NCBI GenBank assembly: GCA_030765185.1
Contig: JAVCDE010000024.1
Location: 315,538 to 379,537 of the forward strand
DNA from: Candidatus Aceula meridiana
GTDB taxonomy: Bacteria > Omnitrophota > Gorgyraeia > Zapsychrales > Aceulaceae
Direction: 5' to 3'
DNA: 64,000 nucleotides
Below the pieces are notes generated by a model, which saw only the letters and a program-made list of their open reading frames with translations, had not been told where the DNA came from and made no database searches. This document shows, one piece after another, positions 22,408 to 27,716 of the stretch (position 1 is its first letter; every line of letters starts with the position of its first letter). The position numbers and the translations under genes are program-made.

Positions 22408-22599
22408 TTATGGAGTTCTTTTATTTTTAAAAAACTCAATAACTACCTGAGGTTCAAACCGCAAATACTTTCCTAATTTCACATGCGGAATAGCCTCCAG
22501 ACCTTGACAGGTCCTTTGATAGATCCAGCTAACGGGAACACTGAGGATTTGCGCCATCTCTTGAACTGATACCAGTCTCATTTGTTCCATAATATTCAT
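22408..22599 (-). CDS. AlpA/excisionase-family HTH DNA-binding protein
   Basis: 63 aa; MAQILSVPVSWIYQRT...LPHVKLGKYLRF motif of excisionase-type HTH_17; overlaps XRE gene by 1 nt. Confidence 0.6.
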   Translation of the reverse strand: MNIMEQMRLVSVQEMAQILSVPVSWIYQRTCQGLEAIPHVKLGKYLRFEPQVVIEFFKNKRTP

Positions 22600-22802
22600 T
22601 ATTCATCCAAGAAATATGATGTAGGTTTCTTGAGAACCTTGGAAACCTTTACTAAAGTCTCCAAGGTAGGCAAAGAAATTCCATTTTCATATCTAGAAAT
22701 ACTTTTTTGTTTAGCTTTTATTTTTTCGGCAAGGTCTGTTTGTGTTAAATCTAATTCTACGCGAGCTATCTTGATTTTCTTTCCTAGTTTTTTCGCATCC
22801 AT
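22599..22802 (-). CDS. XRE-family HTH transcriptional repressor
   Basis: 67 aa; IKIARVELDLTQTDLAEKIKAKQKSISRYENGISLPTLETLVKVSKVL is a canonical HTH_XRE; divergent from a consensus promoter. Confidence 0.8.
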   Translation of the reverse strand: MDAKKLGKKIKIARVELDLTQTDLAEKIKAKQKSISRYENGISLPTLETLVKVSKVLKKPTSYFLDE

Positions 22803-23113: not shown

Positions 23114-24829
23114 ATGCGCGCCTCTATTTACGCCAGATACTCTTCTCAAAATCAAAGCGAAAAAAGCATCGAAGACCAGATAAGGGTCTGCAAAAAATAT
23201 TGTACAGAAAACAATATCACGGTTAATGAAAATAGCATCTATATCGATGAAGCTACGTCAGGCTCTCTTGTAAAAAGATTCGGCCTCGGAGCCCTTGAAA
23301 TCGCAGCCGAAAACAAAGAATTCGACGCCATAGTAGTTGACGATCTCTCGCGTCTTTCCAGAAGCAATCACCAGATGCTTACCCTGGTTCTCAAATTTAA
23401 CTACCTTCAAGTCAAGCTCATTTCTGTTTCTGACGGAATCATTACAGATGATGAAAATTCCAAGCTCGGGATTCAGATGCGGGGACTTATTAACGAGCTC
23501 TATCTCGACGACTTAAAGAAAAAAACTATGCGAGGACTTGAAGGACAAAAACTGCGAGGTTTTAGCGCCGGAGAAAGTGTCTACGGCTATCTGACAAATC
23601 CCTTCGGTGATCTAAAAATGAATCGAAAAGGCATAGCGAAATATGAAGGCAAGGTTCACAAGATTAATCCTGATGAAGCCGAGATAGTAAAAAGAATTTA
23701 TTTGGACTTCGTTTCCGGAAAAAGTACTCACAAGATCGTTGAGCAACTCAATATCGATAAAATCCCGACAAAAAAACACCTCAAGGGTGGCTGGAACATA
23801 TCAACGGTCTGCCGAATCCTTAAAAATGAGAAGTACATCGGTATCTGGAAATGGAAGACACATAAAAGCGTTAGAGACCCAATTACGGGGAAGAGAAAAT
23901 CTATCTCTCGCCCAGAAAGCGAACATCTCTCCTTCTCTCGGGAAGATCTTATTATCATTAATAAAGAGCTCTGGAACAAGGCCCAGGAGCACTGGGCCGA
24001 CCTTAAAGGAACCTGGCCAATAAGCAAGAAAAAGAAAACTTACTATCAACAGAAAAGCTATGTTCACACTAGCCCTACTCACCTATTCTCAGGGCTGATG
24101 AAATGCAAAGCCTGCGGAGGTGCTATTTTGCTTGTCAGCGGTAAAGGATTAGGATATTACGGCTGTTACAATGCCCGGCGAAAAACCTGCAACAACACCC
24201 TGCTCGTTCCTCGTAAAAGGCTTGAGCAGATCATCATTGGTAAGCTGCGAGAAAAACTGCTAACCACGAATAACCTAGAATATGTTTATCGGAATATCGA
24301 AAAACTAATTGCCTCAGGACTCAACGAAGTCCCTGAATTGACAAAAAAGAAAAAGGCACAACTTGAAAAAATTAAGACAGAAATGCACAATTATCTAAAT
24401 TTTATTAGGGCTGGAAATTTCTCAAAGACCGTATCTGAGGCCTTGAATGAAGCGGAAAAGAAAAACAGCGAACTGGAGCAAGAAATTACGGCCTTAGAAT
24501 TTCAACAAAATAATAATTTTAAGGCGCCGCCGAAAGAATGGATCAGTCATCGGCTAGAACGACTAACTGAAACGCTAAACAAAGATACCGTCGCCTCTTC
24601 CTCAGCGCTTAAAGAACTATTGTCACCGATAACCCTTGAGCCTATCTTAAATAAAGAAGTCGACTTATATCGCCTTTTTGAAGGCAACGACAAGGAATTC
24701 AAGCCCTATTACGTAGCCCATACAAAAATCAACACCTTGTCCCTATTAGACGAGAAGGGCCAAGGTGCGAATTGGTATCAATGGTGGAGGCGCGGAGAAT
24801 CGAACTCCGGTCCTTGTGTTACCCAATAA
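23114..24829 (+). CDS. large serine recombinase (site-specific integrase)
   Basis: N-terminal resolvase catalytic domain (ASIYARYSSQNQSE...QIRVC, Ser nucleophile), recombinase domain, C-terminal zinc-ribbon Cys pairs and coiled-coil; 571 aa; last 16 codons are encoded by the tmRNA 3' end. Confidence 0.9.
   Translation: MRASIYARYSSQNQSEKSIEDQIRVCKKYCTENNITVNENSIYIDEATSGSLVKRFGLGALEIAAENKEFDAIVVDDLSRLSRSNHQMLTLVLKFNYLQVKLISVSDGIITDDENSKLGIQMRGLINELYLDDLKKKTMRGLEGQKLRGFSAGESVYGYLTNPFGDLKMNRKGIAKYEGKVHKINPDEAEIVKRIYLDFVSGKSTHKIVEQLNIDKIPTKKHLKGGWNISTVCRILKNEKYIGIWKWKTHKSVRDPITGKRKSISRPESEHLSFSREDLIIINKELWNKAQEHWADLKGTWPISKKKKTYYQQKSYVHTSPTHLFSGLMKCKACGGAILLVSGKGLGYYGCYNARRKTCNNTLLVPRKRLEQIIIGKLREKLLTTNNLEYVYRNIEKLIASGLNEVPELTKKKKAQLEKIKTEMHNYLNFIRAGNFSKTVSEALNEAEKKNSELEQEITALEFQQNNNFKAPPKEWISHRLERLTETLNKDTVASSSALKELLSPITLEPILNKEVDLYRLFEGNDKEFKPYYVAHTKINTLSLLDEKGQGANWYQWWRRGESNSGPCVTQ
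24782..24802. repeat. att direct repeat (right boundary) inside tmRNA 3' end
   Basis: see left repeat; lies in T-arm/acceptor/CCA region of tmRNA. Confidence 0.7.
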
Positions 24830-25179
24830 TAGCCTCTACATGCATAGTTTGTTTTTTAGAATCTCATCTCAGTCACTTTAAACAAACAAACATTACTGAA
24901 ACCAGCCTTTTAAATCTCATTTCACTAATAAAGGCAACCAGTGAAACCAGCCTACTAAATGACCTCTCTTAAAACCCGTAGACAAAACTCTAAGAAAGGG
25001 CCTAGTTTGGTTAAACTAGGGCTGGTTCGCCAGCGAAAATCGGTTCAACGATTTCGTTAGCTTGCGCAATTAGTGTATTTGCGTTTAATTTGTGCCAGGA
25101 TGATTAACGAGGCCAACCAGGCGTCCTCGGCATGCCACTACTATCGGAGTCAAACTCAAGTCGAAACCAGGTCGCCCCC
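24782..25179 (-). ncRNA. ssrA: tmRNA (SsrA)
   Basis: minus strand 5' GGGGGCGACCUGGUUUCGAC...GCAUGCCGAGG... and 3' ...CCGGAGUUCGAUUCUCCGCGCCUCCACCA; acceptor stem with G3-U70 wobble; adjacent to smpB. Confidence 0.8.
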
Positions 25180-25240: not shown

Positions 25241-25726
25241 CTATTTTCTACTTGTTCGTACGGCTCTATCTAAGTCCTTCTTGATATCACGCTTTTTAAT
25301 GGTTTCGCGCTTATCATAAAGTTTTTTACCCTTCACAAGCCCAAGACTCACCTTCACAAAATTATGTTTATTCAAAAAAATAGATAAAGGAACCAAGGTC
25401 AGGCCTTTTTGAATCATTTGACCTAAAATCTTTTTGATTTCGTTTTTATGCAAAAGAAGTTTACGCGCGCGGTCGCTGTCAGGATTTAAATAGCTTGCTT
25501 GCGCATACGGGTCGATATGAAGGCTGTGCAAAAGAATTTCTTTTTTCTCAATACGGGCAAAACTGTCTCTAAAATGAACATGCCCTGCGCGAACAGACTT
25601 GACTTCGCTTCCCTTTAGTTCGATACCGCACTCATAGCGATCGACAACAAAGTAGTTGCGAAAAGCTTTTTTATTAGTTGCAATATTTTTTGATTCCATA
25701 GGACAAGACTTTCTTTCTTTTGACAA
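25241..25726 (-). CDS. smpB: SsrA-binding protein SmpB
   Basis: NKKAFRNYFVVDRYECGIELKGSEVKS...HIDPY...LLLHKNEIKKI motifs of SmpB; likely true start at internal ATG (25699). Confidence 0.9.
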   Translation of the reverse strand: MSKERKSCPMESKNIATNKKAFRNYFVVDRYECGIELKGSEVKSVRAGHVHFRDSFARIEKKEILLHSLHIDPYAQASYLNPDSDRARKLLLHKNEIKKILGQMIQKGLTLVPLSIFLNKHNFVKVSLGLVKGKKLYDKRETIKKRDIKKDLDRAVRTSRK

Positions 25727-25831
25727 TAATCACGTTATTATACCATAACAAAAACAAGGCGCAATCACCCCGAGGAACAATTGATACATACGCTCCCTTT
25801 GAAAAAGGTCTCTTAAGTATAAATCCTTCGG

Positions 25832-25860
25832 TTGACAGGTTGAGCTTTTGCCGATATACT
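25832..25860 (+). promoter_or_regulatory. sigma70-type promoter upstream of tRNA-Leu locus
   Basis: TTGACA-17nt-TATACT, ~20 nt before first tRNA-Leu 5' fragment. Confidence 0.45.
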
Positions 25861-25881
25861 TTTTTTAGCTGAAAGATTTCT

Positions 25882-25906
25882 GCCGAAGTGGCGGAATTGG
25901 CAAACC
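25882..25906 (+). pseudogene. tRNA-Leu 5' fragment (acceptor + D-arm only)
   Basis: GCCGAAGTGGCGGAATTGGCAAACC matches 5' third of a tRNA-Leu; no anticodon/T arms follow. Confidence 0.5.
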
Positions 25907-25968
25907 AGCTTTCCTTTTTTGATTAAAGCGGTAGTTGGCGCGCACCTGTTCCTTTTTTAAAAATTTCT

Positions 25969-25993
25969 GCCGAAGTGGTGAAACTGGTAGCCC
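25969..25993 (+). pseudogene. tRNA-Leu 5' fragment, second copy
   Basis: GCCGAAGTGGTGAAACTGGTAGCCC; same 12-nt leader ATTTCTGCCGAAG as first copy. Confidence 0.5.
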
Positions 25994-26059
25994 AGATTTC
26001 CTTAAATAAATTTTAAAAGAAGCTGGTGCACACTCACTCCATCTCAAATAAATATTTTT

Positions 26060-26143
26060 GCTGGAGTGGTGAAATTGGTAGACACGCACGTTTCAGGGGC
26101 GTGTGGAAGCGATTCCATGTGGGTTCGAGTCCCACCTCCAGCA
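26060..26143 (+). tRNA. tRNA-Leu (anticodon CAG), type II with long variable arm
   Basis: acceptor GCTGGAG/CTCCAGC+A, D-arm GGTAG, anticodon stem CACGT/GCGTG with loop TTCAGGG (CAG), variable stem-loop GGAAgcgaTTCC, T-arm GGGTTCGAGTCCC; CCA not encoded. Confidence 0.8.
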
Positions 26144-26181
26144 CAAATATTTATTTAGGAAAAGTGAGTGTAGACTCTTAA

Positions 26182-26239
26182 GTACGTTTCAGGGACGTGT
26201 GGCTTCGCGGCCATAAGGGTTCGAGTCCCTTCTTCGGTA
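26182..26239 (+). pseudogene. tRNA-Leu(CAG) 3' fragment (anticodon arm to acceptor 3' strand)
   Basis: GTACGTTTCAGGGACGTG...AAGGGTTCGAGTCCCTTCTTCGGTA; its acceptor 3' strand CTTCGGT pairs with the GCCGAAG of the upstream 5' fragments, not with the intact gene. Confidence 0.5.
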
Positions 26240-26312
26240 TAAATCTCTAACTAGAAAAAACAAGTGCAGGCGTACACGCTTCAAAAGTAAAGCACTAAAC
26301 AAAAGGATTTTT

Positions 26313-27716
26313 ATGAGTAAAACTGTTCAACTTGCTGTCATCGGAGCCGGACCAGCCGGATATACGGCTGCATTCTTAGCTGCCAGCAAAGGGTTAAATA
26401 TCGCTTTAATCGACGATAGTGGTTTAATCGGCGGCACTTGCCTGCACAAAGGTTGCATCCCCTCTAAAACTCTTTTACAAATCGCTAAAACAATTAACGC
26501 CGCCAAGCAAGCCGAAAAATTCGGCGTAACATTTTCTAAGCCTAAAATTGATATTAAAAGAATTAACGCTCACAAAAATGATATTGTCAAAAAGCTTTCA
26601 TTAGGACTTGCCCAGCTTTCCAGACAACGTAAATTAAATTTCGTAACGGGCACAGCACAATTCCTAGACTCTAAAAACCTTTCCGTTGAAAAGCAAGATG
26701 GCAGTAAACTTTTCCTCACTTTTGAAAAATGCATTATCGCTACAGGATCAACGCCAATCATCCCCTCTTTTGCCTTAGAGAAATCAAAAAATATTATCAC
26801 ATCAGAACAAGCCCTAGACCTAGAAAGCATCCCCAAAACTTTGCTGATTGTTGGTGGCGGCTATATCGGACTTGAAATGGCTCAAACCTATAGCTCTTTG
26901 GGCTCCAAGGTAAGTCTCTGGGAAATGACTGGAAGTCTTTTACCAGAGTCAGATGAAGACCTTGTTCGCCCGCTTCTGCGGACTTTAAAAAAAGAAATCA
27001 CCATAAAGCTTGGGACCGCTGTCAAAACTCTTACCCCCTCTGGCAAAAGCATCAAAGCCTGCGCCGAGGAAAAAGGCAAAGAAATAACAGAACGTTTTGA
27101 AAAAGTTTTGGTGGCCGCTGGAAGAAAGCCCAACAGTAGGGGGATTAATCTTCAAAAAACAAAAATCCAGCTAGATGAAAAAGGCTTTATTCAAGTTGAT
27201 AGCACTCTTAAGACAGCTGAAGAAAATATTTATGCAATCGGCGATGTAGTTGCCGGTCCCCTGCTCGCACACAGAGCCTCCGCACAAGCGCATACTGTCG
27301 TTAAAAATGTATGCGGTGAAAGCTCTGCTTTTACACCTAGCGCTATCCCTTCGGTTGTCTACACAAGCCCTGAAGTTGCTTTCTGCGGCCTCACAGAAAC
27401 ACAAGCCCAAATACAAAACAAAGACGTTGAAATTTCCAAGCTATCTTGGGCAGCTTCCGGGCGAGCCTTAAGCCTTAATCAAACACAGGGCTTAACTAAG
27501 CTTATCTTTAATTCTTTAACAAAAAAATTGGTAGGCGCAGGAATTGTCGGCGCTGATGCAGGCGAACTTATTGCAGAATGTGTTTTAGCTGTCGAAGCAG
27601 GCCTAGATGCCAAAACCATTGCCTCAAGCATCCATCCTCATCCAACGTTATCGGAAACCATTAAAGAATGTGCAGAGAAATTCTTGGGCGAGTGCGCCCA
27701 TTCGCTTAAGAACTAA
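26313..27716 (+). CDS. lpd: dihydrolipoyl dehydrogenase
   Basis: AVIGAGPAGY FAD motif; GGTCLHKGCIPSK redox-active disulfide; NAD and dimerisation domains; 467 aa. Confidence 0.85.
   Translation: MSKTVQLAVIGAGPAGYTAAFLAASKGLNIALIDDSGLIGGTCLHKGCIPSKTLLQIAKTINAAKQAEKFGVTFSKPKIDIKRINAHKNDIVKKLSLGLAQLSRQRKLNFVTGTAQFLDSKNLSVEKQDGSKLFLTFEKCIIATGSTPIIPSFALEKSKNIITSEQALDLESIPKTLLIVGGGYIGLEMAQTYSSLGSKVSLWEMTGSLLPESDEDLVRPLLRTLKKEITIKLGTAVKTLTPSGKSIKACAEEKGKEITERFEKVLVAAGRKPNSRGINLQKTKIQLDEKGFIQVDSTLKTAEENIYAIGDVVAGPLLAHRASAQAHTVVKNVCGESSAFTPSAIPSVVYTSPEVAFCGLTETQAQIQNKDVEISKLSWAASGRALSLNQTQGLTKLIFNSLTKKLVGAGIVGADAGELIAECVLAVEAGLDAKTIASSIHPHPTLSETIKECAEKFLGECAHSLKN

Follow-up and report, generated by a model that had tools for sequence, protein, structure and literature searches.

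In a stretch of 64,000 nucleotides (nt) from Candidatus Aceula meridiana, an uncultured member of the Omnitrophota represented by a metagenome-assembled genome (MAG) from Ace Lake, Antarctica (contig JAVCDE010000024.1; the whole stretch is hereafter called the window), we identified an intact tRNA-Leu(CAG) gene that is flanked by partial copies of a tRNA-Leu of a different sequence type. Two copies of the 5' end (F1 and F2) lie upstream of the gene, and one copy of the 3' half (psi) lies downstream. The partial copies belong to a type with the acceptor strand GCCGAAG (type B), and the intact gene to a type with the acceptor strand GCTGGAG (type A). We consider it probable, on the evidence below, that the live type-A gene recently replaced a type-B gene, and that the pieces are dead local tandem copies that had been kept gene-like by slippage or unequal crossover. 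Sequence comparison across three lineages shows the flanking half-copies to be old, to follow the allele of the gene beside them, and to vary in number.

Partial copies and the resident tRNA-Leu allele

ARAGORN places the intact gene at 26060-26144 of the forward strand, and Rfam recognises a tRNA at 26060-26143 (RF00005, 50.5 bits, with a gathering score of 29), in agreement with the initial annotation of this DNA, which had proposed a tRNA-Leu(CAG) at the latter positions. Across the whole window, ARAGORN called this one tRNA and one transfer-messenger RNA (tmRNA). The gene has the acceptor GCTGGAG/CTCCAGC, the variable arm GGAAGCGATTCC and the discriminator A, and encodes no CCA; the features of a type-II tRNA-Leu that we identified in it are the variable arm GGAAGCGAUUCC, the A at 26143 and the GG in the D loop. 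The live gene forms a complete cloverleaf, and F1, F2 and psi do not. None of these three pieces has a tRNA match in Rfam, even at E<=10; psi is not called as a tRNA by either ARAGORN or Rfam, and on its own folds no better than shuffled sequence (z 0.27).

For the 5' end, the pattern GCCGAAGTGGYGRAAYTGG matches at 25882, at 25969 and, with 2 mismatches, at 26060, where 0.07 matches would be expected by chance. The two pieces share the leader ATTTCT and the tail CCAGnTTTCC, as had been described. They had also been taken for perfect tRNA-Leu 5' ends of 25 nt, and this needs correction: piece 1 starts at 25882, and the match extends over ~21-22 nt, since the pieces lack the D-stem 3' strand. 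Each piece forms part of a longer leader unit. Unit U1 (25876-25968, forward strand) consists of ATTTCT, F1 (25882-25906, GCCGAAGTGGCGGAATTGGCAAACC), a hairpin and an AT-rich tail, and is found in the window only. Unit U2 (25963-26059, forward strand) consists of ATTTCT, F2 (25969-25990, type B), a hairpin and the proximal leader CTCACTCCATCT...AATATTTTT. F1 and F2 differ at six positions, two of which perfect a small hairpin with the leader, and a tRNA-Leu with the 5' end GCCGAAGTGGCGGAATTGGCAGAC would be a possible source of F1.

The 3' piece psi (26184-26240, forward strand) contains an anticodon arm, a variable arm, a T arm and the acceptor 3' strand CTTCGGT followed by A, as had been described. 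The CTTCGGT strand pairs with the GCCGAAG of the 5' pieces, as stated initially; the accompanying claim that it does not pair with the GCTGGAG of the live gene was too strict, since this pairing is also possible via three G.U pairs. A natural acceptor of this composition, GCTGGAG/CTTCGGC with U3.G70 and G5.U68, is found in the tRNA-Leu(CAG) of L061 (minus strand, 1040-1123; L numbers designate loci collected from other contigs), and this tRNA either bridges the two acceptor types as a wobble intermediate or has arisen by recombination between them.

The allele to which the pieces belong is intact in the nearest relative, represented by four independent contigs (L033-L036) that are identical across the intergenic region, and whose LpdA and SmpB proteins are 79% and 83% identical to those of the window. 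These contigs carry the promoter, one unit (leader, GCCGAAGTGGTGAAACTGG, ~70 nt), an intact type-B tRNA-Leu(CAG) gene with a GCCGAAG-type acceptor at the same place as the live gene, and lpdA directly after it. Alignment with related genomes therefore recovered the GCCGAAG-type tRNA-Leu that had been postulated as ancestral. L033 has the 5' piece but no 3' piece. In the alignment, U2 is the ortholog of the single L033 unit, and the live gene stands where L033 has its own. When the 22 tRNA-like nt are left out, the similarity is z 7.4 for U2 and the L033 unit, z 6.7 for U1 and U2, and z 3.9 for U1 and the L033 unit, and U2 scores 108.5 bits with a covariance model of the unit, R1. F2 with its leader is identical at 28/28 positions to the leader and 5' end of the L033 tRNA gene; over 23 nt the 5' pieces show no difference between the window and L033, and the rest of the unit is only 60% identical. 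Similarly, psi matches L033 6664-6720 at 54 of 57 positions, and its T stem and acceptor motif is found elsewhere, in all loci collected, only in L033-L036.

The live gene, in contrast, is identical to the L033 gene at only 70 of 85 positions (82%), whereas the tmRNA genes of the two organisms are identical at 361 of 401, indicating that the live gene is the odd one out and that the allele expected to be resident is that of the pieces. In the live gene, the variable arm and T stem differ from type B, with all changes compensatory. The 5' part differs by C3T, A5G, C16T and at leader position -2, giving GCTGGAG, T16 and the leader TTTTT where native type B has GCCGAAG, C16 and TTTCT; the first 46 nt of the live gene are identical to L061. 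Of the two fates initially suggested for the ancestral gene, splitting or replacement by a second tRNA-Leu copy, the comparisons of psi and of the live gene favour replacement. That the 5' pieces simply make up the remainder of the same broken gene is not supported, as L033 has an orthologous unit in front of an intact gene, and the third lineage likewise has the unit, with the other acceptor type.

This third lineage comprises L168 and L038, two contigs of MAG GCA_036681025.1 (SmpB 70%, LpdA 58% identical). In L168 the promoter is followed by a unit that starts with GCTGGAGTGGTGAAACTGG joined to CTGC and contains a type-A piece (GCTGGAG), and by a second, decayed unit; the junction of ACTGG to CTGC is common to the units of L033 and L168. 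The gene of this lineage ends in CTCCAGCA and is followed by a 42-nt spacer that is homologous to window 26145-26183. In L038 a decayed tRNA 3' copy stands after the spacer, with the type-A variable arm GGAAGCGAT, which is otherwise found only in the live gene of the window. In a further locus, L169, a type-A gene lies behind a 190-nt leader with a decayed piece.

Piece and gene are thus both of type B in L033, and piece, gene and 3' copy are all of type A in L168/L038; the window alone has type-B pieces and a type-B 3' copy around a type-A gene. The number of leader units is one in L033, two in the window and at least two in L168. Because L033, with its intact gene, carries a unit, and L168/L038 carries type-A counterparts, the flanking copies are evidently old, and the same comparison suggests that the 5' pieces are older than the gene swap.

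Downstream of the live gene we identified two related spacers. The first, r1 (26145-26183, forward strand), is 39 nt long, has no open reading frame (ORF), contains the right arm of an inverted repeat, and shares homology with the spacer that follows the L038 type-A gene (z 6.8, 0 of 2000 shuffles) and with the second spacer, r2 (z 5.3). The latter (26241-26306, forward strand) is absent from L033 and ends in GCA just before CTAAACAAAAGGA, a sequence that in L033 directly follows the tRNA. The 3' half of the live gene with r1, and psi with r2, form a pair with a 96-nt period.

The live tRNA sits atop a 24-base-pair (bp) stem between leader and trailer (26030-26171; -59.5 kcal/mol, z -7.2). The left arm of the inverted repeat (26030-26059, forward strand; z 6.2) is on the leader side and is common to L033, and the right arm (26144-26171) is within the trailer and is common to L038. 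The predicted stem may serve in processing, or may have been left by an inverted duplication.

We additionally identified a 16-mer, CTCTTAAGTATAAATC (25810-25825, forward strand), 7 nt upstream of the -35 box of the promoter, that equals the joined flanks of psi: positions 26175-26184 and 26240-26245, that is, with 26185-26239 removed, give the identical sequence. This is the only non-trivial composite match among 24,231 tested, and 14 of its 16 positions are kept in L033; we found no similarity beyond the 16-mer. Possibly, this sequence is what is left of a tRNA 3' end and the beginning of a trailer. A larger, 420-nt tandem unit bounded by 15/16-mers was considered and rejected, as the flanks past the 16-mer are unrelated.

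Partial self-copies at other tRNA-Leu(CAG) loci

We investigated the distribution of such copies in a metagenome scan with the anticodon arm, which gave at least 120 loci, 100 of them with a full gene. Among the matches listed, partial self-copies beside the gene are present in six of the 13 loci with Omnitrophota synteny, and in one of the 87 others (L147; Fisher p 9e-6). The copies in L057, L075, L093 and L137 are of the 5' end, measure 12-19 nt, stand behind the same short leader and co-vary with their own gene, and in L065 a 3' copy lies 3 nt past the gene; the better-preserved cases of duplication are L147 and L093. A 3' strand with GGCA at its end pairs with the 5' copy in L075, L093 and L137, in the manner of an acceptor minihelix.

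Other arrangements were found at single loci. L137 has, 330 nt upstream of the tRNA, two hairpin units in which the first 11-12 tRNA nt are paired with their exact complement, and which end in TCCCGGCA and are similar to an acceptor minihelix. Tandem repeats of 68 nt stand upstream of the tRNA in L125, at the same position as the L137 units. In L113 (524-923), the sixth of the Omnitrophota-synteny loci with partial copies, tRNA-Leu(CAG) is followed by three ~125-nt tandem units, and each unit closes with the final 17-20 nt of the tRNA.

As judged from their sequences, partial copies arise repeatedly, since distant units are non-homologous and close relatives differ, L055 being without a partial copy although its close relative L057 has one. 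The model R1 finds the window, L033 and L168 only, and the units of distant Omnitrophota are not homologous to the Aceula unit. A single ancient structured RNA family across the Omnitrophota was therefore rejected as a candidate, R1 being limited to the Aceula clade.

Allele replacement and alternative histories

In the history that we favour, the region would be one transcription unit, consisting of the promoter, a leader of ~200 nt, one live tRNA-Leu(CAG), a trailer and lpdA. Copies of the tRNA 5' end, each with a few nt of its leader, would lie in the transcribed leader, and some lineages would add a copy of the 3' half in the trailer. These copies may arise by local tandem duplication in units of ~87-96 nt; the periods of U1, U2 and the L033 unit are 87, 91 and 89 nt, and a duplication origin fits because such lengths correspond to one tRNA and a short spacer. 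Slippage or unequal crossover between short direct repeats would keep the copies gene-like, in a form of concerted evolution, and alter the number of units. In the window lineage the type-B gene would then have been swapped for a divergent type-A allele, which probably arrived with the 39-nt trailer r1 by recombination with DNA of an L038/L168-like lineage. F1, F2 and psi would have been left behind as mismatched fossils of the earlier allele, probably without function.

Several points weigh against this history. The duplication origin is argued from unit length, from the better-preserved L147 and L093, and from analogy; residual similarity of the leader units to the tRNA body is not significant (z ~-1 to 0.2), and in six lineages the leader-unit stretch has no similarity to the sequence upstream of the piece. 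The identity tracts, of 23-28 nt, are short for RecA-driven conversion, no donor genome was identified, and selection could give the same pattern of kept pieces in diverged units. The window version of the locus is on record from one assembly only, as a single MAG contig. Nor is the history unique: a misaligned recombination, in which the two ends of the old gene paired with the 5' piece and 3' copy of a donor and the gene was split, might account for piece 2 and would give the same map as an allelic swap. We favour this variant less, because U2, and not U1, is closer to the L033 unit.

Two other duplication models were rejected: a tandem duplication of upstream sequence together with the 5' part, for which there is no similarity in any of the six lineages, and the origin of leader units as uniformly decayed full tRNA copies, for which there is no residual similarity in the window, L033, L057, L075 or L093. 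The leader unit of L147 has a marginal similarity to the tRNA (z 1.9). No sub-threshold Rfam tRNA matches were found in the leader units of the window and 13 related loci. Tandem Repeats Finder did not detect the arrays, the copies being too divergent for it.

Related phenomena are known from other genomes. In the tyrT-tyrV locus of Escherichia coli K-12 (rttR/RtT), three repeats spaced at 178 nt run into the 3' end of tyrV. The window likewise has tandem units beside a tRNA, each with a terminal tRNA piece, in the form of the pair made by the 3' half with r1 and psi with r2; the same design is seen in L113. Judging from their position, the window units would lie in the same transcription unit as the tRNA, as in tyrT-tyrV. 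Unlike rttR, the region has no Rfam match to RtT RNA (RF00391), at the gathering threshold or at E<=10, and its repeats are also found upstream, carry the tRNA 5' end, and differ in allele from the live gene. Tandem duplication and random loss produces tRNA pseudogenes in animal mitochondrial genomes (reportedly, for example, in PMC4223735), and resembles the proposed history in the local duplication of a tRNA, the decay of redundant copies, and the presence of pseudo-tRNA remnants beside a live gene. It differs in that here the setting is a bacterial chromosome, the end pieces are near-identical to the gene and not uniformly decayed, and an allele replacement would be superimposed. A literature search on tyrT/rtT and bacterial tRNA pseudogenes returned no directly relevant paper. 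The locus is a clear instance of tRNA gene turnover, as a variant of known tRNA-linked repeats and fragment duplications; a new kind of genetic element is unlikely.

The initial annotation had explained the pieces as footprints of repeated integration and excision. We regard it as unlikely, though worth weighing at length, that elements integrated into the tRNA-Leu(CAG) gene and were later deleted. Here psi would be the displaced native 3' half (attR), the live gene would be a rebuilt attL with an element-derived 3' half, and the 5' pieces would come from rarer elements recombining with the 5' part of the gene. Integrase-bearing islands and prophages, as Williams is said to have described in 2002, leave attL/attR duplications of tRNA 3' parts. 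The window resembles these in that an intact gene, whose 3' half has another origin, is followed by an orphan copy reaching from the anticodon stem to the 3' end; this copy begins exactly at the anticodon stem, which is the classical crossover region, and gives a direct repeat of the tRNA 3' part, as att duplications do. Fragments of tRNA-Leu(CAG) that comprise the 3' part only, and have the same left boundary, are found in L056, L121 and L071. A tyrosine integrase gene (PF00589) stands 160 nt downstream of the L056 fragment, which is of another allele and is likely to be the attP or an att junction of an element targeting tRNA-Leu(CAG). In addition, the tmRNA gene next door probably hosts a serine-recombinase element in the window, and relatives have tyrosine-integrase elements there. 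As a separate observation, the fragments of L056 (3014-4410), L121 and L071 all start exactly at ACGTTTCAGGG.

Passages of PMC6563490 summarise the attL/attR duplication of tRNA 3' parts, and present recombination with the 5' part of tRNA genes as documented but rare, citing Zhao and Williams 2002 and archaeal cases. Such 5'-recombining elements would leave an orphan 5' fragment beside the original promoter and a rebuilt gene further down, and the window has this order. The intervening 65-115 nt are, however, non-coding and without a recognisable promoter, and the unit is vertically inherited in three lineages with variable copy number, being passed on together with an intact gene in L033 and L168. 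From the mechanism that duplicates tRNA 3' parts, 5' pieces are not expected at all.

The tRNA-Leu locus also contains no integrase or island DNA, with only the 39 ORF-free nt between the gene and psi, and r1, being homologous to the L038 spacer, is therefore not a random deletion remnant made in the window lineage. A simple attL hybrid would keep the native GCCGAAG, which mismatches CTCCAGC; the 5' strand of the live gene is, in fact, also foreign-type. Viral contigs gave 0 matches to the type-A 3' half or anticodon arm in two scans, and a phage origin of the type-A 3' half thus found no support in the viral contigs scanned. With the spacer shared by another lineage and no integrase at the locus, the earlier reading as integration footprints is not borne out.

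Selection offers another route to the same pattern. The half-copies might be functional parts of the precursor RNA, kept matched to the gene, with roles as platforms for RNase P/RNase III processing, as decoy acceptor strands or as stable spacer-derived small RNAs; we judge this quite improbable. If it were true, the copies would govern precursor folding and processing by RNase P/RNase III, and so the balance of tRNA-Leu and lpdA, and the window would be a system caught just after a gene swap, with its flanking copies yet to catch up. Consistent with a function, the allele of the pieces tracks that of the gene in three orthologous lineages, F is 100% conserved as against 60% for the rest of the unit, and the hairpin that follows F persists, both bases having changed in 6 of 18 pairs. 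The minihelix-like pairing of the 5' copy in L075, L093 and L137, the position of the live gene on the 24-bp leader/trailer stem, and the enrichment of copies in the Omnitrophota among the matches listed point the same way.

Other observations oppose a function. RNAalifold, applied to five units, predicts a small hairpin of leader and piece and a second hairpin, with a covariation term of -0.56 kcal/mol that comes from three independent lineages only. Units are absent from close relatives of their bearers (L055 as compared with L057) and from L104, L098, L065 and L061; L169 and the second unit of L168 have a decayed piece; the pieces are of unequal length (12, 19, 22 and 27 nt); and the pieces of the window no longer match the live gene. 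The units of distant lineages are non-homologous. That the fragments belong to a longer conserved structured RNA, which would have refuted the initial annotation, finds no support, since no Rfam family other than tRNA matches the region, or the units in 13 related loci, and R1 is confined to the Aceula clade. A function for the pieces is possible, and is not needed to explain the data. A minus-strand protein gene behind the conservation was considered and rejected, as the antisense ORFs (window 25865-26089, L035 7657-7989) have nothing in common but the motif that stems from the 5' piece.

We think it very improbable that the arrangement is an assembly artefact, either a chimera of co-occurring type-A and type-B strains or a mis-resolved tandem repeat, even with the window version known from a single assembly. 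The copies are too divergent to collapse or to form a loop in an assembly graph, their longest shared exact runs being 16 nt, and the junctions are without a repeated k-mer. The independent assembly of L038/L168 repeats the order of gene, spacer and 3' copy as well as the multiple leader units, and the one-unit state is attested by the four identical, independent contigs L033-L036. The artefact that the initial annotation had allowed for, a collapse of tandem tRNA repeats, is unlikely on the same grounds.

A still-used split tRNA-Leu, with F2 and psi as its halves and the live gene on its long stem as an excised intervening sequence, can be set aside as next to impossible. F2 (positions 1-22) and psi (27-76) would be adjacent once the U2 hairpin (~25987-26031) and the stem (26030-26171) were folded, and GCCGAAG pairs with CTTCGGT, but positions 23-26, and with these the D-stem 3' strand, are absent, their place being taken by AGACTCTTAAGT, so that, unlike in the split or permuted tRNA genes of Nanoarchaeum, Caldivirga and Cyanidioschyzon, the pieces do not complete a tRNA. 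L033 is without a 3' piece, the L038 3' copy has decayed, psi alone folds like shuffled sequence, and no bulge-helix-bulge splicing system is known from Bacteria.

Genomic setting and implications

The gene order at the locus, tmRNA and smpB on the minus strand and then the promoter, tRNA-Leu(CAG) and lpdA on the forward strand, is common to many Omnitrophota contigs. In the window, the tmRNA gene (24782-25179, minus strand; ARAGORN and Rfam) and smpB (25241-25726, minus strand), which is divergent from the tRNA promoter, served as synteny anchors. The ORF of lpdA, encoding dihydrolipoyl dehydrogenase, is located at 26313-27716 on the forward strand, and the gene order to the right of the tRNA locus is the same as in L033. 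The encoded LpdA has 100% identity to a Candidatus Aceula meridiana protein, which a cluster search has on record; an exact look-up of the protein returned nothing. A SmpB search of genome contigs returned distant relatives only (<=60% identity).

The sigma-70-type promoter TTGACA-17-TATACT (25832-25860, forward strand) lies just upstream of the units, as originally reported, and matches the consensus at 11 of 12 positions. The same promoter is found upstream of the tRNA or lpdA in 17 related loci and, with the variant second hexamer GATATGAT, in L075, and is conserved across the phylum. Its bearers include L033, L055, L057, L061, L065, L093, L098, L104, L108, L110, L113, L168, L169 and the variant L075, and it is kept in the tRNA-less loci L037, L159, L162 and L165 too. 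We infer that it serves the tRNA and also lpdA. Because no terminator-like site was found on the forward strand of the window between promoter and lpdA, tRNA-Leu(CAG) and lpdA are probably co-transcribed, with the tRNA inside the lpdA leader; in L033 the gap from tRNA to lpdA is only 19 nt.

We additionally identified variants of this arrangement. In the Aceula lacicola group (L159, L160, L162, L165, L166 and L037), a Mem_trans gene stands between smpB and the promoter, tRNA-Leu is missing at the locus, and TTGACA-17-TATACT is directly upstream of lpdA. L099 and L109 are AT-rich contigs outside the Omnitrophota synteny set, with the tRNA acceptor GCCGCAG and LpdA 35-36% identical; in both, lpdA starts ~100 nt after tRNA-Leu(CAG), so that the linkage of tRNA-Leu and lpdA may be wider than one phylum.

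The neighbouring tmRNA gene probably has insertions of its own. A large serine recombinase of 571 amino acids (23114-24829, forward strand) with Resolvase, Recombinase and Zn_ribbon_recom domains ends inside the tmRNA 3' end (24782-24829), and is adjoined by small HTH proteins (HTH_17, HTH_3), also at 22408-22802 on the minus strand. A mobile element has thus probably integrated into the tmRNA gene; within the window, the tmRNA 3' end was found only once. In relatives, ORF6N and a tyrosine integrase are encoded just after the tmRNA (L163 2009-3583, L165 4238-5814), and a Mutator-family transposase just after smpB (L168 1813-2997).

Taken as we favour it, the locus would provide a dated, three-genome picture of turnover in a single-copy, essential tRNA gene, in which the swap of a whole gene leaves allele-tracking flanking copies behind as fossils of the previous allele. 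For annotators, it suggests that such pieces should not be read as integration scars by default. The enrichment of half-copies around tRNA-Leu(CAG) in the Omnitrophota, among the matches listed, may point either to a lineage-specific mutational process, or to an undescribed role of tRNA end copies in precursor processing.

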